A DNA stretch of 64,000 bases from the NCBI GenBank assembly GCA_964016885.1, contig OZ024749.1:47616001-47680000 (forward strand), read 5' to 3'. A program made the translations under genes and the position numbers. Of the stretch, positions 5,151-63,757 are shown in pieces (within the stretch, counting starts at the first letter, position 1; each line of letters begins with the position of its first letter). The notes beneath the pieces are model-generated. The model did not search any database. It saw only the letters and a program-made list of their open reading frames with translations, and was not told the DNA's origin. The DNA comes from Eledone cirrhosa (lineage: Eukaryota).

Positions 5151-5169
5151 ATATATATATATATATATA

Positions 5170-5440
5170 TGGAAAGTTATATTTAAATTGTTGGGTTACA
5201 ACTAGTAAATATTTATAACTGATATAAAAGCACTCAACAAGTATTTGGAGTATATTTACGATATTAAATAAATGGAAACTATATTTATAAAACCATATTT
5301 ATTTCATTATATATATTTCAGGGATATCATATTAACAATATGTTTTGCCTTCTTCAGACAAAATGCAATATAGACAGTTTTATAGATAAATAGATTTGAC
5401 ATACCGTTCAACATCGACTTGTATTTGAAAAAGTTGATTT
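5170..5440 (-). mobile_element. Solo 3' pseudo-LTR end (with tail) of the PLE at 45.3-50.1 kb
   Basis: Near-identical to the reverse complement of about 49790-50061; (TA)n on both sides. Confidence 0.9.
5300..5365 (-). ncRNA. Type I hammerhead ribozyme, family A (core CUGAAGA)
   Basis: Reverse complement: attttgt CTGAAGA agg..catattgttaatatg..cct GAAA tatata TA atgaaat. Confidence 0.7.
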
Positions 5441-5803: not shown

Positions 5804-6145
5804 TGTATAATATAATATAAAACGGAAAATCAATGATGTATCTGAACTCAATTTAATATGAGTTACAATAGTTTCGCCAACGGACAGCTCGAGACACGAT
5901 CATTGTGTGGAATCTGTCTGATTATTGATCCACTGGTTCGATGGACACGTCGAATGATTTTGGAGCAAATTCTTTCTTAAAATAATTTGCTCCCAATCAT
6001 TAGACGTGTCCGTCGAACCTGAGGACCCACAATCAGACAGTTCCACACAATGATCGTGTCTCGAACTGTCAGCTGGTGAAACAATTTTAAGACACAATAA
6101 ATTGATTTCAGATGCATCACTGATTTGTCGTTTTATATTATACAC
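5804..6145. repeat. Fold-back element with about 165-bp diverged arms and a degenerate hammerhead at 6019-6089
   Basis: 5804-5971 is the reverse complement of 5983-6145. The right arm reads CTGAGGA c cca..gacagttc..gaactgtc..tgg t GAAA caattt TA, but stem I pairs poorly. Confidence 0.75.
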
Positions 6146-9334: not shown

Positions 9335-9883
9335 ATACATTATGAAGAGAGAAGAAACATTTAGATATAATTAGTAATCAAATGTATCATACCTAAACTG
9401 CTCCTAGATTCTTCGACTACGTAGTTTCGTGGCATAAACAAAAACAATACATCATAAAGATATAGTGTCCTTGCGAGGTCTGCCGACTTATCAAGATGTG
9501 TGACTGCTGGAAAGCTGCCATTACTCATACTTCTCGTCTCCTTCACCACCTCTTCTACGGCTTCGATATAAATACCCCCTCCGCCTCCGTGGTATTTTCT
9601 TCGGGGTTATAAGAGGCTTAGCTCTGTTTCTCGACCGTTATATCGCGTGACTATCTCCCCCTCCGCCTTTTGGGATTCTTTCTCACGTCGTGTAGACGCG
9701 TTCTTGAGGCTAGTAAATGAGGTATCCTCTTGATAAGTCGGCAAACGTCGCAAGGCCTCTATATCTTTATGATGTATTGTTTTTGTTTATGCCACGAAAC
9801 TACGTAGTCGAGGAATCTAGGCTCAGTTTAGGTATGATACATTTTATTACTAATTATATCTAAATGTTTCTTCTCTCTTCATA

Positions 9884-9889
<6 letters not shown>
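9335..9889. mobile_element. Fold-back element with about 162-bp inverted arms
   Basis: 9335-9496 is the reverse complement of 9728-9889; the right end runs into (TA)n. Confidence 0.9.
9725..9814 (+). ncRNA. Type I hammerhead ribozyme with U3:A8 variant core (family C)
   Basis: tcctc TTGATAA gtcggca...tgccac GAAA ctacgtag TC gagga: perfect 5-bp stem I, palindromic stem III, GUC site. Confidence 0.75.
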
Positions 9890-10049: not shown

Positions 10050-10740
10050 CTAATGGACATGGTTATCCGGAACAGGAAGGACAACCGTACGAATGTGCAT
10101 GCGCAGAAACGATCACTTCATACAGGCAATTCTAAAGTCCGTGAGTCAGAAAAGTTTCTAGTTGATATGAACATTAGGATGTTGTTGTAATTCAATCCGG
10201 AGATTTGTAGTTATGTAAGATGTGTTTCCAGACGTGTGGACAACGTGTGAATAATTTGTTTCTCTTGTTTAGGCAATCAATATTGCGTAATCTCTTTGGA
10301 TATTTATTCGTTCATCAATACATAAACCACACGACGGATTGTCCAGTGCGTATGGCTTGGACTTAGTGATGGCTTTACATTGAATGGAGTAGTCTATACT
10401 TGATACCTTGAGTGGCCATACGTGGCTTGCGAGTTTCGTGGATGAACGTCTGTCCGGGTACCCACTATCAACAACAGCAATAAGAAAAGAAAGCGTAACA
10501 ATAGACAAATTATACGGTTCTCTCCACCCTTCTCACTCAACGTTAAAACCAATGTAGGCAAATCATTTCTAGCCCTCTTACATATATCATAAATACCGCT
10601 ACACTATTACATATATCATAAATACCGCTCCATCTTTAACCGACACAAAGTAAAACTAAGATACTCCTGCGCTAAGAACATGAAGGCCCACATCACCAAC
10701 AGCCGTAAAAGCAACACCCCCGCCAGAATGCTCTTGCCGT

Positions 10741-11178
10741 ATGCCTGAAGCTTGCCCCACTCAACAGCAATGCAACACACCCGCTGTAGTTTATGAAGCT
10801 GTGGTCATTTCCAACCAACCAAATCAACCACAGGACGTCAAATCCTATGTGGGTATGGTGGAGGGCCGATTTATGGAATGCTTCATGAACAACCAGTCGA
10901 CCTTTAGGTACCCGGACAGACGTTCATCCACGAAACTCGCGAGCCACGTATGGTCCCTCAATGACTCAAGTATAGTCTACTCCGTTCAATGGAAAGCCAT
11001 CTCTATGTACATGCCATACACATGGGGCAATCCATCGTGTGGAATATGTATTGATGAGCGAATAAATATTCTAAAGAGATTACGCAATAGTGATTGCCTA
11101 AACATGGGATATGAATTCTTCACACGTTGCCCACACGAATCGACACACCTCTTACTTAACTACAAATCTCCGTATTGA
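10741..11178 (+). pseudogene. GIY-YIG endonuclease domain of a Penelope-like element
   Basis: VVY...YVG motif, STKLASHVW, CGIC and CPH; collinear with the 47792-48436 protein. Confidence 0.85.
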
Positions 11179-11541
11179 ATTACAATCAGACGAATACAAC
11201 TTCCAGAATGCCATCAACCGTCGATACTGAGATCGTGCATATCTTTAATGAGATTTGTTCGCTTTTAAACATGAAATAATCCAATGTTTAAACAACGATG
11301 CATTGAAATAATCATATGTATATATATATATTTCATTTCTGAATTTGTTTAGCAAGATTCTTTATCTGAAAAGGTGTGTTGAAACCGATATTGTTATACT
11401 TTGGGAGGGTCATGTTGCCAATAAGAAACACACGCACCAGTTGCTTTCACCTCAATTTATTATAATAAATGTATAAATTTATAAATTTATAAATTTCTGG
11501 TAGGTTGGTTGGTTCCACAACCAGATGGTTGTTTATATATT

Positions 11542-11584
11542 GTCAAAGTTATTTCGTCACACATTTTGTGAACTCTTCAGTGAC
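11542..11584 (-). ncRNA. Minimal hammerhead, family B (core CUGAAGA)
   Basis: Reverse complement: gtca CTGAAGA gttcacaaaatgtgtgac GAAA taac TT tgac. Confidence 0.6.
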
Positions 11585-11734
11585 TGGGGATACTTTTCTT
11601 TGTTTTATGTGCCTCTCCTTTGTTCTCTCCTACGCCATCTTGTTTGTGTGTGTGTATGTGAACACACACACAAAAACAAGATAGCGCAAGACAGAACAAA
11701 GGAGAGGCACAACAAACAAAGAAAATAATCCCCA

Positions 11735-11777
11735 GTCACTGACGAAGTCACACAATGTGTGACGAAAGAACTTTGAC
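11735..11777 (+). ncRNA. Minimal hammerhead, family B (core CUGACGA)
   Basis: gtca CTGACGA a gtcacac aat gtgtgac GAAA gaac TT tgac: 4-bp stem I and 7-bp stem II. Confidence 0.75.
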
Positions 11778-11926
11778 AATATATAAACAATCATCTGGCT
11801 GTGGAACCTACCAACCAACCAGAAATGTATAAATTACTAAATTTATAAATTTATTAAAATACATTGAAGTGAAACAACTGGTACGTGTGTTTCTTATTGG
11901 CAACATGACCCTCCCAAATTATAACA

Positions 11927-11962
<36 letters not shown>

Positions 11963-12151: not shown

Positions 12152-12486
12152 TATAAAAACAAAGAAACAGTTCCTTATATTAAAAAAATCATCATTTTAC
12201 GATCGTTTCTAAATATATATGTGTGTGTTGGTATGTATATCATATAGATCTATGTAAACATTTTACAAACTATCAGAGGAAATATACATACCTACACATA
12301 TATATGCTGTCTTCAGAAATAAGTAGACAGCATATATATGTGTAGGTATGTATATTTCGTCAGATCGTTTGTAAAATGTTTACATAGATTCATATGATAT
12401 ACATACCAACACACACATATATATCCTAGAAACGATCGTGAAATGATGAATTGTTTAAAATAAGGAACTGTTTCTTTGTTTTTATT
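12152..12486. mobile_element. Fold-back element with about 160-bp arms and a 12-nt spacer
   Basis: 12152-12312 is the reverse complement of 12325-12486; (TA)n(GA)n follows. Confidence 0.9.
12193..12321 (-). ncRNA. Hammerhead with long stem II (family F)
   Basis: Reverse complement: tattt CTGAAGA cagc atatatatgtgt.ggtatgtatat...atatacatacc...acacatatatat tta GAAA cgatcg TA aaatg. Confidence 0.65.
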
Positions 12487-15036: not shown

Positions 15037-15420
15037 GGGCGGTGCATTGGCAGTATCGGTAGAGAGTCTGATGTCTGACAAAGAGATATGGCCCTTTATG
15101 ATCTGATTTCAAATCCCACCGAAGTTAACTTTGCCTTTCATTCTTACGGGGTGGATAGAATAAAGTACCATTAATAGCTGGCAATGTGCCAACACGAGAA
15201 AAATGACTATTATTATGATTATTAGTATTTAAGGGCGGTGGATTGGCAGTATCGGTAGAAGGTCGGACGCCATGCTTTGCAGCATAGTTACGTCCATTTA
15301 CGATCTGAGTTCAAATCCCGCCAAGGTTAACTTTGCCTTTCATCCTTACGGGGTCGATAAAATAAAGTACCAGTAATGCACTGGGTAATTGCTGGCCTTG
15401 TGCCTAAAATAGAAACAATT
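15037..15420 (+). mobile_element. Two tandem SINE copies (15037-15203 diverged; 15233-15420 full length)
   Basis: Begin ggcggtg.attggcagtatcgg, contain a B-box-like motif and end in (ATT)n. Confidence 0.9.
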
Positions 15421-15444: not shown

Positions 15445-16450
15445 ACAGTTGCATTTATCTTGCTTTATGTTCATACGAGTTATCACCAAGTCACAACCAG
15501 TGACCTCAAGAGACAACAAGGTCCGCCATGTTCAAGAAAGAACATACATACTCACACATGCATCTTTCGTGTTTAGACTTGTGATGTACTTATATTGACA
15601 GAATCTTCCTTAGCATATGGGCAGTTCCCATCAGTACTATCTTTTGTATTTCTCCTATACGCGGGTTTCCTGGGATTTGCGATAAGTAATCATTAGACAC
15701 CTTAGGTATGATTCCCAGAGCACCGACAACCACTGGTATTGTTTTAGTTCTCAATTTCCACATTTTTCTAATTTGTATCTCCAGGTCCTTATACTTGCTC
15801 AATGTTTCAAATGTTTGTATAGATACATTCTTGTCTATTGGAACGGACATATCAATTAGCAGGCATACCCTCTTTTTAAAGTCCTTCAGGATTATATCAG
15901 GTCTATTTGCATCTATTTTTCGGACTGTCTGGATGCTAAAGTTCCACAAGATTCAGATGTGATATTTTTTCCAGTGTGGGAGGTGGTTGATGCTCCCACC
16001 AATTCTTTTGATGGGACCGGTCAAAATGCTTACACATTATCCAATGTATGTATTGTGCAGCTCTATCATGCCTGGTTGGAGCTATAGGACTGCACATTGA
16101 GATTATATGATCGATGGTCTCTGGTTGTTTTTTTACATACACGGCATAATGGGTTGCATCCATTTTTTATTATGTTGGCTGGGTAATTTTTTGTTGGCAG
16201 ACACTGATCTTGTCCTGATATAATTAGTCCTTCAGTCTCCGATTTCAGTCCAGAGGATGCCAACCACTGATGGGTTAAAGTTTTGTCAACATAAAGATTG
16301 TTAGCTGTTTATGGGTATTTTACATACATAGGCTTTTCTTGCCATTTCTTAGCCAGTTTCTGTAGCAGTTCTTTCTTTGCAGTTACTTTTACCTGCTTTC
16401 CTTTTTCTGTGTTTTCCATTTCAGCAGTAAATGTGACTTCTGAAATGTGT
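15445..16450 (-). mobile_element. 5'-truncated R4/Dong-like non-LTR retrotransposon, family A (CCHC finger plus restriction-like endonuclease)
   Basis: ETEGLIISGQDQ, CRVCKK..ETIDHIISMC, NRPDIILKD..LIDMSVP..KY.DL, PVVVGALG, GTAHMLRKIL; frameshifted; (TAA)n at both ends. Confidence 0.9.
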
Positions 16451-19389: not shown

Positions 19390-19419
<30 letters not shown>

Positions 19420-19458
19420 GATATTAACAAATGGAAACTATATTTATAAAACCATATC

Positions 19459-19523
19459 TATTTTATTATACATATTTCAAGGATACCATGTTAAATTATG
19501 GTATGCTTTCATCAGACAAAATA
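19459..19523 (-). ncRNA. Hammerhead, family A' (core CUGAUGA)
   Basis: Reverse complement: tattttgt CTGATGA aag c ataccat..atggtat c ctt GAAA tatgta TA ataaaata. Confidence 0.8.
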
Positions 19524-19692
19524 CAATATATACCAGTTTTATAATTAAATGTTAACATACCCTTTCAAAATGCAACCGTTACTTTTGGAAGACATCAGGA
19601 TATTGGATTTGTTTATCTTAATAAGTCATTGTGTAACACAATGACTTTTGAAAGGGTATATTAAAATGTATTTATAAAACTGGTATATATTG

Positions 19693-19757
19693 TATTTTGT
19701 CTGATGAAATCATACCATACTTTAACATGGTATCCTTGAAATATGTATAATAAAATA
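19693..19757 (+). ncRNA. Hammerhead, family A' (core CUGAUGA)
   Basis: tattttgt CTGATGA aat c ataccat..atggtat c ctt GAAA tatgta TA ataaaata. Confidence 0.78.
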
Positions 19758-19887
19758 GATATGGTTTTATAAATATACTTTCCATTTGATAATATCGTAT
19801 ATTTACTCCAATTACTTGTCGAGTGCTTTATATCAGTTATAAAAGTGTTTGCTTGTTGTATCCCAACAATTTAAATAGAACTTTTGC

Positions 19888-34370: not shown

Positions 34371-35284
34371 AGAAATGGCAAGAAAAGCCTCTGTATGGAA
34401 AATACCCAGAGCGAGCTAACAATCCTGATGTTGACAAAACTTTAACCCATCAGTGGTTGGCATCCTCTGCACTGAAATCGGAGACTGAAGGACTGATTAT
34501 ATCGGCACAAGATCAGTGTCTGCCAACAAAAAATTACCAAGCCAACATAATAAAAGATGGGTGCAGCCCATTATGCCGTGTATGCAAAAAACAACCAGAG
34601 ACCATTGACCATATAATTTCAATGTGCAGTCCTATAGCTCCAACCGAATACCTAAAAAGGCATGCCAGAGCTGCACAACACATACATTGGATAATGTGTA
34701 AGCATTTTGACATGCCCCATCAAAAGAATTGGTGGGAGCATCAGCCACCTCTCATACTTGAAAAAGATCACATCTCAATCTTGTGGAACTTTAGCATCCA
34801 AACAGACCGAAAAATAGATGCAAACATACCTGATATAATATTGAAAGACTTTCAAAAGAGGGTATGCCTGCTAATTGATATGTCTGTTCCAATAGACAAG
34901 AATGTATCCATAAAAAACATTTGAAAAATTGAGCAAGTATATGGACCTGGAGATAGAAATTTGAAAAATGTGGAAATTGAGAACTAAAACAATACCAGTG
35001 GTTGTAGGCGCTCTGGGAATGATACCTAAGGGGTCTAATGATTACTTATCGCAAATCCCAGGAAACCTGCGTATAGGAGAAATACAAACGATATTACAAA
35101 TGAGAACTGCCCATATACTAAGGAAGATTCTGTCAATATAAGTACATCACAGGTCTAAACACTAAAGATGCATGTGTGAATATGTATGTTCTTTCTTGAA
35201 CATGGCGGACCTTGTTGTCTCTTGAGGTCACTGGTTGTGACTTGGTGATAACTCGTATGAACATAAAGCAAGAGAAATGCAACT

Positions 35285-35287
<3 letters not shown>
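34371..35287 (+). mobile_element. R4/Dong family A, 5'-truncated
   Basis: ORF 34457-34924 has a CCHC finger (CRVC..HIISMC) and a PD..D endonuclease motif; frameshift near 34920; (TAA)n tail. Confidence 0.92.
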
Positions 35288-45235: not shown

Positions 45236-45312
<77 letters not shown>

Positions 45313-45318
<6 letters not shown>

Positions 45319-46769
45319 ATTAAATAAATGGAAACTATATTTATAAAACCATATTTATTTCATTATATATATTTCAGGGATATCATATTAACAATATGCT
45401 ATGCCTTCCTCAGACAAAATAAAATATAAACAGTTTTATAGATAAATAGATTCGACATACCGTAACAACATCGACTTGTATTTGAAAAGGTTGATTTGGC
45501 AGTGAAAAAATTGTACACAGAGAGAAAGAAAGAGAGAAAAAAAGAGAGAAAAAAGGAAAGAAAGACAGAAAACGAAGAAAAAGAAGAAAAAGAAGAAATG
45601 CATGGAACAAAATAGAGAGATGGAAAGATCGATAAAGAGAAGAACTTCATGTAAAGAAACAGAGAGATATATATATATATATATATAGAGAGAGAGGAAA
45701 TAGAGATAGATACATATATATAGAAAACTAGGTAGTGGGACGTCTGTTGGGTAAACGTATCAATGATACATTTATTTATTTATTTATTTATTTAGCTCTA
45801 GTATTAATGTAAGGGAGATATATGGAGAGAAACCAGCAGTATATATATAGAGAAAAAATATAGAGAGAGAAAAAAATATAGAGAGAGAAAAAATTTAAAA
45901 ATACCAGACATAGGCAAGGCGTAAAAACCCTATGTTTTAATGTAGAGGTATTAGTATTTATAAAAACCAGCCACTATATTGTAAATATCAGTATTCCGGA
46001 ATGAGACATGTATCCATAATGTGTGAAAATTAATGATCTTATGTTTAGTTTTTTAAAAAAATTCATATGTTTATGTGATAACTACAAACATCTATGTGAA
46101 TTTACATGATCAACTCTGCAAACCCTAACTTCACGGAAAAGATTCTCATTGTGGTATAAACATTTAAGTATACATATATGTGTATATATATACACACAAA
46201 TATATATAGAGTCAATATTACTATTCCTGTCTTTACTCTACAAGATTATCTATCAAGCAGAAATAGAGAGCAGATTTCAATATACTAATAAAAATATATA
46301 TCAGAAACAAAACTAAAAAATAACAATAATAATAATAAGTAATAATAAAATAGAAAACTAAAAAAATATTACGAAAGAATATTACATATTAAAAATATTA
46401 CATATTAAAAAATTTACATATTAAAAATATTAAAAATAAAAATATTATAAAATACTACAATAATAAAAATAAAAATAAAAATAAACCACAAAGATCAACC
46501 CTTCAAAATTAATTGACAATATATTGCCAAGTTCATTATAAGCATCAGAGTCGAAAAACAGATAAAGCCAAAAATTATCTATCAAATCGCATCTAGCAAA
46601 GATCATTTCAAAAAGTTTAGGATGCCCATTTGGTCTACATGTGTTCTTATATTTAATATAGAAGTTTATCTAGTGTAACGTTTATTCGAAATATTTGGAG
46701 CATCAACTTTTAGGGTAGCTTAATTTTTCATGAAGAGTGTTTAAATAAAAATAAAATAAAAATAAAAAG
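45313..46769 (-). repeat. Left (inverted, tail-less) pseudo-LTR, about 1.46 kb
   Basis: Near-identical reverse complement of 48504-49974 with scattered substitutions. Confidence 0.95.
45356..45421 (-). ncRNA. Hammerhead, family A (left pseudo-LTR)
   Basis: Reverse complement of 49866-49931. Confidence 0.75.
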
Positions 46770-46800
46770 TTAGATTGATCTAGATTGATCTAGATCTAGA

Positions 46801-48436
46801 TTGCCAGTTAGATTGATCGCACCATCAAAATCGGACCTGGGCAAATTAAGCAAAAACATTCTTGACAGGGTGATACAGCAAATTAAGAACTTGGATTGTT
46901 TATCTAACCTGAGCTTGTGGAAGGGAACTGGAGAGGTTGTTGAGTGGTTTAAGCAAATTAAATATAACAATAATAATAAGTTTATTCAACTTGATATAGC
47001 TAACTATTATTCTTCTATTACCCCTAATCTACTAAATAAGGCACTAAATTACGCATTCAAACATACTGACCTAACTAGCAATGAAATGCATATTATATTA
47101 TCGGCTAGGAAAACTTTGATAGAATTTAATGACCAACTATGGACCAGAGCAGATAGAGATAGCAATTTTGACATTACTATGGGATCATCCGACTCAGCTC
47201 AGGTAACTGACCTTGTGGGCTTATTTTTAATCAATTCGCTACATAGGAAAATACCTGGTACTACCGGAGGTTTATATAGAGATGACATGCTTTTACTTAT
47301 TGATAATAATAACTCTGAACTAAATAGAAAATGTAAACAAATTACACAATTTTTTAATTACTTTAATCTTAAAATAGAAATTGAGAACAACCATAGAATA
47401 GTCAATTTCCTAGATATAACATTAAATCTCAAAACATGTCTTCACTATCCTTTTCACAAGTTGAATGAAAACTTAAACTATGTCAACTTTAACTCTAACC
47501 ACCCCAGATCTGTCAAAAACACTATAGTAAACTCTGTTCAAAAACGTATCTCTAGGATCTCGTCGAATAGAAAGATTTTCGACGAAAAAGCCCAATACTA
47601 CAATGAAGCATTAGCTAGAGCAGGATATGCTGATAAGATTGTGTACATAGATAATGATAGACAAACTAAACAAAATAACAACTATTGTAATTACGGCAAC
47701 AACCTTAACAACTATAATAGAAAGCATTACAATAATTCCAAAGGCCAAAAAAGAAATAGAACTAGGAACATAATTTGGTTCGCCCCCCCCTTTCTCACTA
47801 AACATTAAAACCCACATCGCTAAACTATTTTTTAAAGCTCTTGATAATCGCTTCCCTAGAACACATAGGTATCACTCAATTTTCAATAGACATACAATAA
47901 AATTAACCTACTCATCCACCAAAAATTTAGCACAAAATATTAATAGAATAAATAATAGGAACTTAAAACCTAGTGATAATAGCATAAATAATATCCAAGT
48001 TAACAAATGTAACTGTAGAGATAGATCTAAATGTCCGTTAAATAACAACTGCTTAGTTAAAAATATAGTATACAATTGTAATGTTAATACTGACTCTAAT
48101 TCTTTTAACTACGTCGGTTCCACATCGACGGAATTTAAACTTCGCTATAATAACCACAAGAATTCTTTCACAGATCCAAGCAAAAAATCCTCAACGGCAC
48201 TATCAGGCGTACTCTGGCAACTTAAGCTAGATAACGTTAGATATTCGACGGCTTGGAATATAGTCTCAAGAGGGATTCCTTTTAATTCATCCTCTGAGAC
48301 ATGTGACCTCTGCGCAGAGGAGATATTCTTTATACTAAAATCTAAAAATTCCCTTAATCTACGGACAAATTTATTCAGTTGCTGCAAACATAGATTAAAC
48401 TCAACGTTTAAATATAAATTTAAATTTAAAATGTAG
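46801..48436 (+). pseudogene. PLE reverse transcriptase-GIY-YIG polyprotein, N-terminally truncated, one +1 frameshift in the C8 run at 47783-47790
   Basis: RLIAPSKSDLGK, FIQLDIANYYSSI, TMGSSDSAQVTDLVG, GLYRDDML, NFLDITL. Removing one C gives WFAPPFSLNIKT...IFNRHTIKLTYS...CNCRDRSKCPLNNNC..IVY...YVGSTSTEFKLRYNNH...CDLC...CCKH, stop at 48434-48436. Confidence 0.93.
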
Positions 48437-48503
48437 TATATTTAGCTTGATTTATAATTATATGGGAAACTAGCCGATAAATCTTTGATTCCTTCTTTTT
48501 ATT

Positions 48504-50061
48504 CTTTTTATTTTTATTTTATTTTTATTTAAACATTCTTCATGAAAAATTAAGCTACCCTAAACGTTGATGCTCCAAATATTTCGAATAAACGTTACAC
48601 TAGATAAACTTCTATATTAAATATAAGAACACATGTAGACCAAATGGGCATCCTAAACTTTTTGAAATGATCTTTGCTAGATGCGATTTGATAGATAATT
48701 TTTGGCTTTATCTGTTTTTCGACTCTGATGCTTATAATGAACTTGGCAATATGTTGTCAATTAATTTTGAAGGGTTGATCTTTGTGGTTTATTTATATTT
48801 TTATTTTTATTTTTATTATTGTAGTATTTTCTAATATTTTTATTTTTAATATTTTTAATATGTAAATTTTTTAATATGTAATATTTTTAATATGTAATAT
48901 TCTTTCGTAATATTTTTTAATTTTCTATTTTATTATTACTTATTATTATTATTGTTATTTTTTAGTTTTGTTTCTGATATATGTTTTTATTAGTATATTG
49001 AAATCTGCTCTCTATTTCTGCTTGATAGATAATCTTGTAGAGTAAAGACAGGAATAGTAATATTGACTCTATATATATTTGTGTGTATATATATACACAT
49101 ATATGTATACTTAAATTGTTATACCACAATGAGAATGTTTTCCGTGAACTTAGGGTTTGCAGAGTTGATCATGTAAATTCACATAGATGTTTGTAGTTAT
49201 CACATAAACATATGAATTTTTTTAAAAAACTAAACATAAGATCATTAATTTTCACACATTATGGATACATGTCTCATTCAGGAATACTGATATTTACAAT
49301 ATAGTGGCTGGTTTTTATAAATACTAATACCTCTACATTAAAACATAGGGTTTTTACGCCTTGCCTATGTCTGGTATTTTTAAATTTTTTCTCTCTCTAT
49401 ATTTTTTTCTCTCTATATATTTTTTCTCTCTCTATATAACAGCTGGTTTCTCTCCATATATCTCCCTTACATTAATACTAGAGCTAAATAAATAAATAAA
49501 TAAATAAATGTATCATTGATACGTTTACCCAACAGACGTCCCACTACCTAGTTTTCTATATATATGTATCTATCTCTATTTCCTCTCTCTCTCTATATAT
49601 ATATATATATATCTGTTTCTTTACATGAAGTTCTTCTCTTTATCTATCTTTCCATCTCTCTATTTTGTTCCATGCATTTCTTCTTTTTCTTCTTTTTCTT
49701 CGTTTTCTGTCTTTCTTTCATTTTTTCTCTCTTTTTTTCTCTCTTTTTTTCTCTCTTTCTTTCTCTCTGTGTACAATTTTTTCACTGCCAAATCAACCTT
49801 TTCAAATACAAGTCGATGTTGTTACGGTATGTCGAATCTATTTATCTATAAAACTGTTTATATTGTATTTTGTCTGAGGAAGGCATAGCATATTGTTAAT
49901 ATGATATCCCTGAAATATATATAATGAAATAAATATGGTTTTATAAATATAGTTTCCATTTATTTAATATTGTAAATATACTCCAAATACTTGTCAAGTG
50001 CTTTTATATCAGTTATAAATATTTACTAGTTGTAACCCAACAATTTAAATATAACTTTCCA
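48504..50061 (+). repeat. Right pseudo-LTR/3'UTR with tail
   Basis: Partner of the left arm; the last 87 nt or so are unique to this arm. Confidence 0.95.
49866..49931 (+). ncRNA. Type I hammerhead, family A (core CUGAGGA), in the PLE 3' pseudo-LTR, sense to the RT
   Basis: tattttgt CTGAGGA agg c ata g catatt gtt aatatg a tat c cct GAAA tatata TA atgaaata. Confidence 0.78.
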
Positions 50062-50589
50062 TATATATATATATATATACGTGTATAGGGCTGCCAACAT
50101 GCTGAAAGAAACAGATTGTAAGGGTTTTGTTGGATTTATCTATAAGAACAGTTGCAATAAGAATATTATACAATAATCAAATTATCTTAGTTTGTGATAC
50201 TGCCAAGAGAAGTTTTCTCATCCTAGAGACATTATGTCTATTTTGATATCAGAATAGGAAACAAAAAGCAGAAAAACTGACAAACTACAACACGTTGAAG
50301 TACGATACTCACCACTGGAAGATGCAACAACTCACAATTCCACCTATTGCTATTTGTTTTACTTCATCCTTTGGAAGAGGGGTAAAGTGTAAAGAAAGTC
50401 GAAATGTACGAACCAGAAGCATTAGAAAATGAACAAGCACATATCAAATTGAATGCACATGATATATAAGACTACACTTTATTGTCGGCTATCAATGCAT
50501 TTTACAAGATAATAAGCGTTTAATTGAGATAATCTAGTAGTAGTAGTAGTAGTAGTAGTAGTAATAGTAGTAGTAGTAGTAGTAGTAAA

Positions 50590-59429: not shown

Positions 59430-59835
59430 CACCAGTTGCTTTCACTTCAACTTATTATAAATTAAATTTATAAATTTAGGAATTTATAAATTTCCGGTTG
59501 GTTGGTTCCACAACCAGATGATTGTTCATATATTGTCAAAGTTCTATCGTCACACATTATGTGACCTCATCAGTGACTGGGGATTCTTTTCTTTGTTTTT
59601 GTGCCTCTCCTTTGTTCTGTGACGAAAGAACTTTGATAATATATGAACAATCATCTGGTTGTGGAAACAACCAACCAACCGGAAATTTATAAATTCCTAA
59701 ATTTATAAATTTAATTTAAAATAAATTGAAGTGAAATCGTTTGGTGCGTGTGTTTCTTATTGGCAACATGACCCTCCCAAAGTATAACTATATCTGTTTC
59801 AACACACGTTTTCAGATAAAGAATCTTGCAAACAC
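59430..59835. mobile_element. Family B fold-back copy; hammerhead at 59535-59577 (minus) with GAAA changed to GATA
   Basis: 59430-59553 is inverted at 59618-59746; homologous to 11332-11928. Reverse complement: gtca CTGATGA g gtcacataatgtgtgac GATA gaac TT tgac. Confidence 0.88.
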
Positions 59836-62287: not shown

Positions 62288-62298
62288 TTGTGTGTGTA

Positions 62299-62488
62299 AT
62301 AATTGTTTCTACTTTAGGCACAAGGCCAGCAATTACCCAGTGCATTACTGGTACTTTATTTTATCGACCCCGTAAGGATGAAAGGCAAAGTCAACCTCGG
62401 CGGGATTTGAACTCAGATCGTAAAGGGACGTAACTATGCTGGAAAGCATGGCGTCCGACCCACTACCGATACTGCCAATCCACCGCCC
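62299..62488 (-). mobile_element. SINE (main family), consensus-like full copy
   Basis: Full match; flanking direct repeat ttgtgtgtgta. Confidence 0.93.
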
Positions 62489-63757
62489 TTGTGTGTGTAT
62501 TAATGTGAGTATATATATATGATTGTGTGTGTGTATGTATACATATATATATATATACATATATATACACATATACATATATATATGTATGTATATATAT
62601 GTATACATATATATATATATATATATACATATATATACTCTTTTCCTGTCCACCTTTCGCCTCATGAAGGGTTTATGCTCGAAATGCGCCCCGCCCCCCA
62701 ACTCTCAAGCGTGAAACTAATATTAACATTTTGTACTGCCTCTTCGCTCCCTCGTTGTTGTTTTTTTTTTGTTTTCTTTTTAAAAAAAAAAAAATATATA
62801 TATATACACGCATACGCACACCCATATATGTATATATATATATATATACATATATGTACCCACTGAAACGGGGAAAGAATGGAGGAGGGGACAGATAGTG
62901 GTAAAATTCATACCTATTCGTATATGTGTTTGTGTGTGTTTGCACCCGTGTGTCTGTATTATGAATGTTTTTTAAAAAATGCGTTTCTGACTGTGTCTTT
63001 CCTTTTTACTTGTATTAATTATATATTTTATTTTGTGAATACATTTTAATTAGATTTCTTTGTGTCCACAAAGTATTGTATACATTTTTTTAACCATTTT
63101 TCGCACAACATTTTATTCAATTTTGGTTTATTTATTTTGTGAATAATATTATTTTATTTGTAAATTTTAATTAGTTTTTATTTATTATGTCTCATTTTCT
63201 TTTATTTCATATTATTTTTATTCATTAACTTCCTTTCTTTGCCTTTTTATGACTCGTCTTTTTTTTTTGTTTCATTATTTGTTTTCAATTTCCTTCTATA
63301 AATAATCGTTCTACTTTCATTTCAGTTTGTTTTTAATTCGAAATTTATGTTTATAGTGTTTACGTTTGTAGAATATTAATAAAACAAAATTCAAATATCT
63401 TAGACTCATTCATATTACGGGCTGAACGTTACACTTGATTGAACTAATTATTTTGAAACTTAAAATCTGAGACCTTACTAAGTCAGAAATATGGTTTTAT
63501 TCCTAACAAGTATCTCTTTAAATAATTGGTTAATCATGCATTACGATATGCTGCATTGTTCGCTCTCCACGGTTGAAAAACGAAACATATTTGAGTTGAA
63601 AAGTATTAGAATTCCAAATGTAGTTTGAATCATAGTGACCCTAGGGTATATGGGTTCTTGCTTCAGTTTAAGCTTAATGTATTATGTGTTGCTATTGCAT
63701 ACTCTGTTGAGAAAACGATGGTATAACCTCTCTAGCGTTGTCCTTTATACGCCCCAT

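Follow-up and report, generated by a model that had tools for sequence, protein, structure and literature searches.

A young Hydra-clade Penelope-like family in Eledone cirrhosa with two sister arms and one tail per insertion

In a 64,000-nucleotide (nt) stretch of Eledone cirrhosa (Eukaryota) DNA (GenBank assembly GCA_964016885.1, contig OZ024749.1, positions 47,616,001 to 47,680,000 of the forward strand; hereafter the window), the element at 45313-50062 is a 5′-truncated copy of a young autonomous Penelope-like element (PLE) family of the Hydra clade, as judged by its motifs. The copy is itself an ordinary dead one, dead on arrival because it has no 5′ end; elsewhere the family has intact open reading frames (ORFs). 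Its insertions pair two inverted sister arms, one of which carries a terminal tail, twin hairpins accompany the two alternative end points, and the short non-coding fold-backs of the family stop at a sharp 5′ boundary. We consider it probable that one RNA is copied twice from two starts, linear molecules giving the fold-backs and circular or tandem ones the ORF-bearing copies.

Results

A young family of the Hydra clade

The intact ORF of 737 amino acids (aa; reference protein P0003) joins a telomerase-related reverse transcriptase (RT) with a GIY-YIG endonuclease at the C terminus in a single frame, the arrangement that defines endonuclease-bearing (EN+) PLEs, and its motifs agree with the definition of the Hydra clade in section 11 of PMC8557442. 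RWR stands at residues 37-39 (RW[KR] in 34 of 42 aligned relatives; RWK in the clade definition), and the change of DKG to DKT is found at 118-120 (D in 42, K in 42 and T in 38 of the 42 relatives). The endonuclease lacks CCHH and has a single, non-conserved Cys between IVY and YVG; the linker CNCRDRSKC reads as CxCx5C, and CDLC-AEE, N712 and CRH make up CxxC and CxH around a conserved E and N. This set of motifs is retained among the 42 aligned relatives. All features that the earlier note on this DNA had described here, namely no CxxC between IVY and YVG, a CxCx5Cx5C linker and distal CxxC/CxH, are present. Judged by domain order, there is no N-terminal endonuclease, CxC domain or IFD, and the RT3-RT4 spacing fits the printed Hydra-1_Obim by eye. 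A GxKF/Y-type motif was not seen before RWR; a GVKF string follows it, at the N-x-(K/R/E)-F position of the printed Hydra proteins. The canonical hammerhead and (TA)n insertion of the clade are found at the sequence level, with self-cleavage a prediction. Placement in the Hydra clade, which that note had proposed subject to confirmation, is thus supported by the published motif definition together with the intact copies described below.

The predicted fold of the intact protein (pLDDT 88) has TERT as its top two Foldseek matches (E ~1e-9, TM 0.34-0.35), other RTs coming close behind. A Pfam search of the window ORFs and P0003 found nothing, GIY-YIG being matched weakly in three of 42 relatives and not in P0003, and a PDB sequence search returned one weak retron RT match only. 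The protein database search, with scoring limited to the 7997 best-word candidates, gave 125 proteins, the best 33-42% identical and the named ones from Argonauta hians. In a tree of 67 unlabelled relatives, P0003 falls in a set of seven rows, nearest to P0015, P0005 (Argonauta) and P0004. An Asn-rich (35%), low-confidence stretch between parts of the thumb (residues 479-512 of P0003, window 47660-47750) recalls the Asn-rich inserts reported in rotifer Penelope (PMC3846280).

The family unit measures 3815 nt and comprises a 47-nt 5′ untranslated region (UTR), the ORF and a 3′UTR of ~1.55 kb; it exceeds the usual <3 kb of the Hydra clade, a descriptive tendency that is not diagnostic. As in other PLEs, pseudo-long terminal repeats (pLTRs) occur in tandem or inverted arrangement with an optional tail, and 194 instances of the pLTR/5′UTR junction pattern are present. 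Searching this genome at the DNA level, with 40 of 4440 candidates scored, returned 45 matches. The earlier note had suggested looking for full-length copies: ten of the 18 ATG-bearing copies on chromosome 1 keep an open frame of 737-740 aa, and the contrary case that it named, arms alike through gene conversion and no intact copies, does not hold. Alleles found in at least four loci are mostly synonymous (endonuclease, 27 synonymous and 6 nonsynonymous; RT, 62 synonymous and 39 nonsynonymous or stop), and singleton alleles are not (33 synonymous against 92 others and 84 against 163 others, respectively; Fisher p 9e-9 for the endonuclease and 4e-6 for the RT). Source copies therefore keep both domains under selection, and the family is autonomous and young. 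Its youth, claimed earlier, is also seen in a median end branch of 0.0024 in the family tree and in window arms 1.4% apart.

Between subfamilies (L043-L122), the middle of the 3′UTR is only 72-85% alike with ORFs 95-99% alike, mostly by turnover of simple repeats. DNA matches of 65-68% to the ORF (L059, L062, L067, L105 and L113) point to more distant Hydra families in this genome. Of the element's words, 41-45% also occur under two other organism labels (B and C; runs X4 and X6), where contig pieces match it identically for 83-123 nt; either close relatedness or transfer would account for this.

The window ORF had been described as broken by 5′ truncation and by one extra C, possibly a sequencing error. 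Both breaks are seen: the element part begins at 46801, codon 194 of the intact protein, and at a run of eight C (C8; 47783-47790) the reading shifts by +1 between the RT frame (46789-47808) and that of the endonuclease (47774-48436). Exact-pattern counts in 577 copies gave 35 C6, 478 C7, 52 C8 and 12 C9, that is, 478 copies in frame and 99 length variants, with three C6/C6 arm pairs among them. In the 12 loci where both arms span the run, both arms are in frame in seven, they disagree in four and both carry the +1 in one. A tree of 113 rows, built after leaving out five duplicate loci and cutting out the C run, requires 34 changes of the +1 label; shuffled labels require 34.6. This scatter and the arm-pair data identify the extra C as a recurrent slip at a C7 hotspot that is at least partly biological. 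Reads over the run come from hundreds of copies, many of them clipped at the run, and in them the C of the window locus is not distinguishable from read error. A programmed +1 frameshift separating RT from endonuclease was considered, the offset being kept in 29 of 30 loci of the first DNA search; that search was biased to its query, however, and the exact counts and the tree scatter rule it out, leaving it barely credible.

One tail and two sister arms per insertion

We compared 80 ORF-bearing loci, comprising all 72 chromosome-1 loci with an exact C7 or C8 junction pattern and eight other C8 loci. An inverted junction is absent in 18 of them, and with the window there are 63 such junctions: direct classification gave a tailed plus a tail-less end for 56 and inspection gave the same for three more, two are unclassed and two are tail-less on both sides. 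Exactly one end is thus tailed in 59 of the 61 resolvable inverted insertions (p ~8e-16 vs 50:50 for this set, not pooled with the 17 loci below that were chosen as pairs). Either arm may be the longer; among the 56 directly classed loci the long arm is tailed in 35 and tail-less in 21. Arm lengths range from 76 to 3664 nt, and junctions are locus-specific.

Independent pattern lists for the first 92.9 Mb of chromosome 1 contain 30 tailed/tail-less pairs, ~6 of which overlap the ORF-bearing set, and no tailed/tailed pair; their single apparent tail-less pair is two ordinary insertions. Moreover, among 40 further tail-anchored loci, 28 have an adjacent inverted partner, always without a tail, and 12 are solo or unclear. 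The pattern counts of 2083 tail ends and 4701 tail-less ends are not comparable, the tail pattern matching one variant only. Raw reads, and contigs under two other organism labels, likewise show loose ends running into (TA)n at both points. In published accounts the tail is frequently on one side only (PMC8557442, PMC3846280), and two RT starts delimit it (PMC11167929).

The two arms of an insertion are sisters. In 44 of 48 loci with a short arm of at least 400 nt, no copy is closer to an arm than its partner (median 0.8% vs 1.7%); the same is true in 48 of 59 loci with any match, and four have no partner match. Over 20,135 nt of ORF overlap in 20 loci, 286 derived alleles are common to both arms (233 common, 34 rare, 19 private) and 62 are specific to one arm (40 private, 9 rare, 13 common, eight of these 13 in L106). 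Many private differences are kept and lineage differences have nearly gone; conversion alone therefore does not fit, and some conversion is compatible. These patterns suggest that both arms come from one source.

The arms meet through 0-4-nt microhomology or short templated inserts. Microhomology of at least 1 nt occurs at 26 of 30 insert-free junctions vs 163 of 300 random joins; this count leaves out 33 'insertion' calls, which are inflated by private single-nucleotide polymorphisms. A second recurrent join lies ~216 nt before the tailed end, at a self-complementary TATA (L144, L148 and L176).

A sharp 5′ boundary of short fold-backs

In all 17 listed pairs shorter than 1.1 kb, the longer arm stops at TTTTC-ACTGC in 13, both arms are shorter in three and both pass in one. 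A prediction set beforehand, that no insertion would combine a stopped arm with a passing one, was borne out by the 28 pairs among the further tail-anchored loci, of which 16 stop in this region, eight are shorter, four pass with both arms and none is mixed. Across the resulting 57 loci, 40 reach the anchor, and ends fall at the A of ACTGC in 12, at -1 in six, at -2 in three and at -3 in two, with none at +1 to +4 (23 of 40 within 3 nt). The partner arms of ORF-bearing loci behave otherwise: 55 run past the box (seven of them set by inspection), one stops and six are shorter. The arms stop at the boundary in 29 of 47 tail-anchored pairs reaching the region vs 1 of 56 partner arms in ORF-bearing loci (p 3e-12), a contrast that an independent pause in each arm would not produce and that makes the stop a template property common to both. 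Short non-coding fold-backs and ORF copies carry the same haplotypes.

A C/T tract of ~130 nt lies directly 5′ of the box. TCACT has been noted as initiator-like in the pLTR of a rotifer PLE (PMC3846280), and the Penelope start site is located in its pLTR (PMC8557442, section 10). The A of the TCACT box may be the transcription start and hence the RNA 5′ end. Neither a count of paired starts nor the run-off boundary was found in the PLE literature searched.

Template signals and a proposed mechanism

The hammerhead core (CUGAGGA at 49874, GAAA at 49912) lies ~140 nt before the element end, and core and stems are kept in 247 matches with some compensatory changes. An Rfam search did not detect the hammerhead and gave AT-repeat noise only; in single-sequence folding, neither the hammerhead nor the tail was better than shuffles (z 0.95, 1.26, -1.30). 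A bulged hairpin follows each end point by 3-7 nt, ACTC..GAGT in the tail and GCTC..GAGC in the 5′UTR, and the two have similar sequences that differ by a two-sided change. At 30 of 63 tailed ends the first G of the 5′UTR is still present, which makes it likely that the template extended across the pLTR/5′UTR junction. An ORF-bearing tailed arm needs this junction 3′ of the ORF; a single genomic copy lacks it, and a circle or tandem RNA would supply it. One locus (L142; G000:C2:316656200-316657500) contains a 168-nt unit of tail region, 5′UTR and ATG more than twice, with one tailed and one tail-less end, which fits a mini-circle or repeated jumps.

We propose that the element's enzyme would nick both strands of a (TA)n repeat and that both nicks would be extended as cDNA on one RNA molecule, one at each of two hairpin-marked starts 88 nt apart. 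The two outer ends would then be RT start sites, by analogy to Poseidon_Ac, for which it has been reported that in vitro both strands are nicked and extended and two internal starts bracket the tail (PMC11167929). The two cDNA 3′ ends would be joined head to head via 0-4-nt microhomology or short local templated inserts, as in the stutter at 46770-46800. A linear RNA beginning at the TCACT box would yield run-off non-coding fold-backs of 0.3-0.5 kb, and ORF-bearing copies, the window's included, would require a template that lacks this 5′ end, the likeliest being a circle ligated after hammerhead cutting, or else a tandem read-through RNA. More tentatively, a stricter version may hold, in which the rear cDNA displaces the front one on the single RNA, capped linear mRNA gives only fold-backs that stop at the transcription start and only hammerhead circles give gene-bearing copies, so that circularisation would be the switch between sterile and productive transposition.

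Alternative explanations

Several points weigh against one RNA copied twice. Chief among them, an asymmetric complex containing two RNAs of one source locus, with a different priming site for each, would account equally for the sister arms and the one-tail rule. Such a complex, the main rival, would also suit the four of 12 arm pairs that differ at the C run and the mosaic-looking L106, whose arms differ at eight alleles common elsewhere and which is possibly a two-template or recombinant insertion. Nevertheless, both arms have the same template class (stop or pass), with ends at the same base in L146, L148, L166 and L180, and mixed pairs are rare (13 vs 233 common alleles) despite the simultaneous youth of several subfamilies; we regard two RNAs as unlikely. 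Further points against one RNA copied twice are that 19 private alleles found in both arms look neutral (13 nonsynonymous, 6 synonymous) and allow some later conversion; that a divergence of 0.62% between tandem pLTRs vs 0.52% between arms does not separate circles from linear tandems; that no arm ends at the predicted hammerhead cut site; and that Poseidon_Ac in vitro started without strand difference and did not need ribozyme cleavage (PMC11167929). The one-tail rule has exceptions, both arms being tail-less at L077 and in an older side element in L111; the 300-nt flanks of L077 are also inverted copies of each other, indicating either a later palindromic duplication or an assembly artefact. 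L050 and L070 are not classifiable for the tail, the tail-anchored samples cover one sequence variant of the end on chromosome 1 only, and the RNA start site, hammerhead cleavage and RNA circles are predictions from sequence.

Three other explanations fare worse. The ACTGC boundary could be an RT pause at the edge of the polypyrimidine tract and not an RNA 5′ end, which would touch the two-template part of the proposal only; the C/T tract adjoins the box and a few arms extend 5-8 nt past it (L159, L180), but independent pauses in each arm cannot yield both 29/47 and 1/56, and we think this quite unlikely. For rotifer Penelope, self-priming (fold-back) with an antisense template has been proposed (PMC3846280), which here would suit the many short fold-backs that join at or near self-complementary bases (CTAG/GCTAGC, TATA). 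However, 21 of the 56 directly classed loci have a tail-less long arm, so that neither of the two is regularly copied from the other; ACTGC is also the exact starting point of solo stubs and of pairs whose partner is very short; and for Poseidon_Ac, internal initiation on a sense template has been reported in vitro (PMC11167929). Given that the longer arm may be either one and that solo stubs begin at that same base as well, self-priming fits worse than two RNAs and is very unlikely. Finally, a DNA transposon with terminal inverted repeats (TIRs), or gene conversion that later homogenised the arms, could draw on the neutral-looking alleles and on L077 as a later palindromic duplication; arm lengths and junctions nevertheless differ at every locus, 40 private arm-specific alleles remain, no transposase is present, and solo and tandem forms of the same unit exist, which makes this highly improbable. 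A TIR transposon or miniature inverted-repeat transposable element (MITE) was also rejected as a class: fixed TIRs, a transposase and a single amplified junction would be expected, against arms of 76-3664 nt and junctions that differ by locus.

Discussion

The family is new, and both its clade and its insertion shape are known. The element resembles the Hydra clade of PMC8557442 (Hydra-1_Obim, Hydra-1_Ajap, Hydra-2_Amil) in its single RT-GIY-YIG ORF, RW(K/R), DKT, CxCx5C, lack of CCHH and CxxC plus CxH, as well as in a hammerhead with extra bases on both sides of stem II and a (TA)n target, and by eye it runs collinear with the N-terminal part printed for Hydra-1_Obim. It is a different family, its best database matches being 33-42% identical, and it has an Asn-rich stretch after the thumb. 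The listed complete families measure 2.1-2.7 kb against 3815 nt with a 1.6-kb 3′UTR here, and clear pLTRs are present, whereas none are reported for Hydra-1_Obim.

An inverted 5′-truncated copy with an optional tail is shared with EN+ PLEs at large (PMC8557442, fig. 2; PMC3846280; PMC2377424), where the tail is 30-40 nt in place of 88 nt; we add counts for the one-end rule, arm sisterhood and the common run-off boundary. Two RT starts that bracket the tail, a template spanning the pLTR-ORF junction, an AT-rich target and extension of both strands are likewise shared with Poseidon_Ac in vitro (PMC11167929). Its starts lie inside the ORF and ours upstream of the ATG, it has no strand difference, and the account in that paper does not address the pairing of starts per insertion or the inverted arm. 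The hammerhead-circle model for PLEs as well as for non-LTR retrozymes (PMC4209133; bioRxiv 10.64898/2026.07.22.740005) has in common with this family a minimal type I hammerhead in pLTRs and more-than-unit copies; its short fold-backs differ in looking like run-off from RNA of the autonomous element itself and not like a separate tandem retrozyme.

The origin of inverted arms, tandems and tails in PLEs is named as open in section 15 of PMC8557442, and only one PLE has been run in vitro so far. Two sister arms per insertion, if made from one RNA copied twice, would explain this long-puzzling shape. With its intact proteins, its mapped candidates for cis signals (start box, hammerhead, two hairpins, two ends) and rules, backed by counts, that any mechanism has to satisfy, the family makes the one-RNA and circle questions directly testable. 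Furthermore, it accounts for thousands of short palindromic repeats in the genome that would otherwise be annotated as MITEs.

The window locus and other repeats

Features of the locus are collected in Table 1. As the earlier note had it, near-identical inverted arms of ~1.46 kb flank the RT-GIY-YIG ORF: 45307-46769 aligns to 48504-49980 over 1482 columns, 1438 of them identical, with 20 mismatches and 24 gap columns (~1.4% divergent), and most mismatches are private to one arm. There is no disguise as a TIR transposon, the inverted arm being the described PLE insertion shape. The outer end at 45313 is tail-less (...TTGTA, then (TA)n) and that at 50062 is tailed (...TTCCAT, then (TA)n); only this right end carries the extra 88 nt (49975-50062). 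The long 3′UTR holds at ~1.63 kb, but the hammerhead that was said to terminate it lies inward of the end.

Table 1 Features of the locus and related copies in the window
Feature	Positions	Strand	Basis
(TA)n target repeat, left side	45256..45312	.	sequence
Inverted 5′-truncated second arm, 3′UTR only, tail-less outer end	45313..46769	-	97% to 48504-49974
Hammerhead copy in inverted arm	45356..45422	-	core at 45413, minus strand
Junction stutter: short repeated copies of the main arm's first bases	46770..46800	+	sequence; locally templated inserts at other loci too
RT part of ORF, codons 194-524 of 737-aa protein, YRDD and Asn-rich linker	46801..47793	+	tblastn 97.6% to P0003
C8 run, +1 vs in-frame C7 of 478/577 copies	47783..47790	+	
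Thumb/linker and GIY-YIG endonuclease (CxCx5Cx5C, IVY..YVG, CxxC, CxH), stop at 48436	47786..48436	+	purifying selection in family
3′UTR / pseudo-LTR, ~1.63 kb	48437..50062	+	
Initiator-like box TTTTC-ACTGC; A 49784 the putative RNA 5′ end, stop of short fold-backs	49779..49789	+	
Type I hammerhead, minimal stem III, palindromic loop, predicted cut after 49923	49865..49931	+	core and stems kept in 247 matches
Inner end (putative RT start 1), end point of tail-less arms	49970..49974	+	
88-nt tail, last base the outer end (putative RT start 2)	49975..50062	+	
Hairpin 1 (ACTC..GAGT), one pair broken in window copy	49980..49999	+	twin of 5′UTR hairpin 2 (GCTC..GAGC) in full-length copies
(TA)n target repeat, right side	50063..50079	.	
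Solo tailed stub of the same Penelope family (96%), starts 6 nt inside box	5169..5440	-	
Non-coding fold-back of older relative (84-85%), one tail-less and one tailed end	19411..19884	.	

The family had also been named as a candidate driver of the non-coding fold-backs. This stands for its own stubs (thousands of ends, among them 5169-5440, and the older relative at 19411-19884) and is not supported for the window's other fold-backs, at 11388-11930, 5811-6142, 9335-9889, 12257-12380 and 59496-59676, which have no DNA match to the family; the first of these has outward hammerhead-like cores at 11580 and 11739. An older fold-back at 10185-11185 (arms 86% alike) surrounds a decayed Hydra-like thumb/endonuclease fragment that is 26-47% identical to P0003. 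Elsewhere in the window, a dispersed repeat family of ~190 nt (80-96%) occupies 15208-15417, 62297-62490 and ~15 more places, and a 0.9-kb repeat is found at 15446-16344 and 34376-35285.

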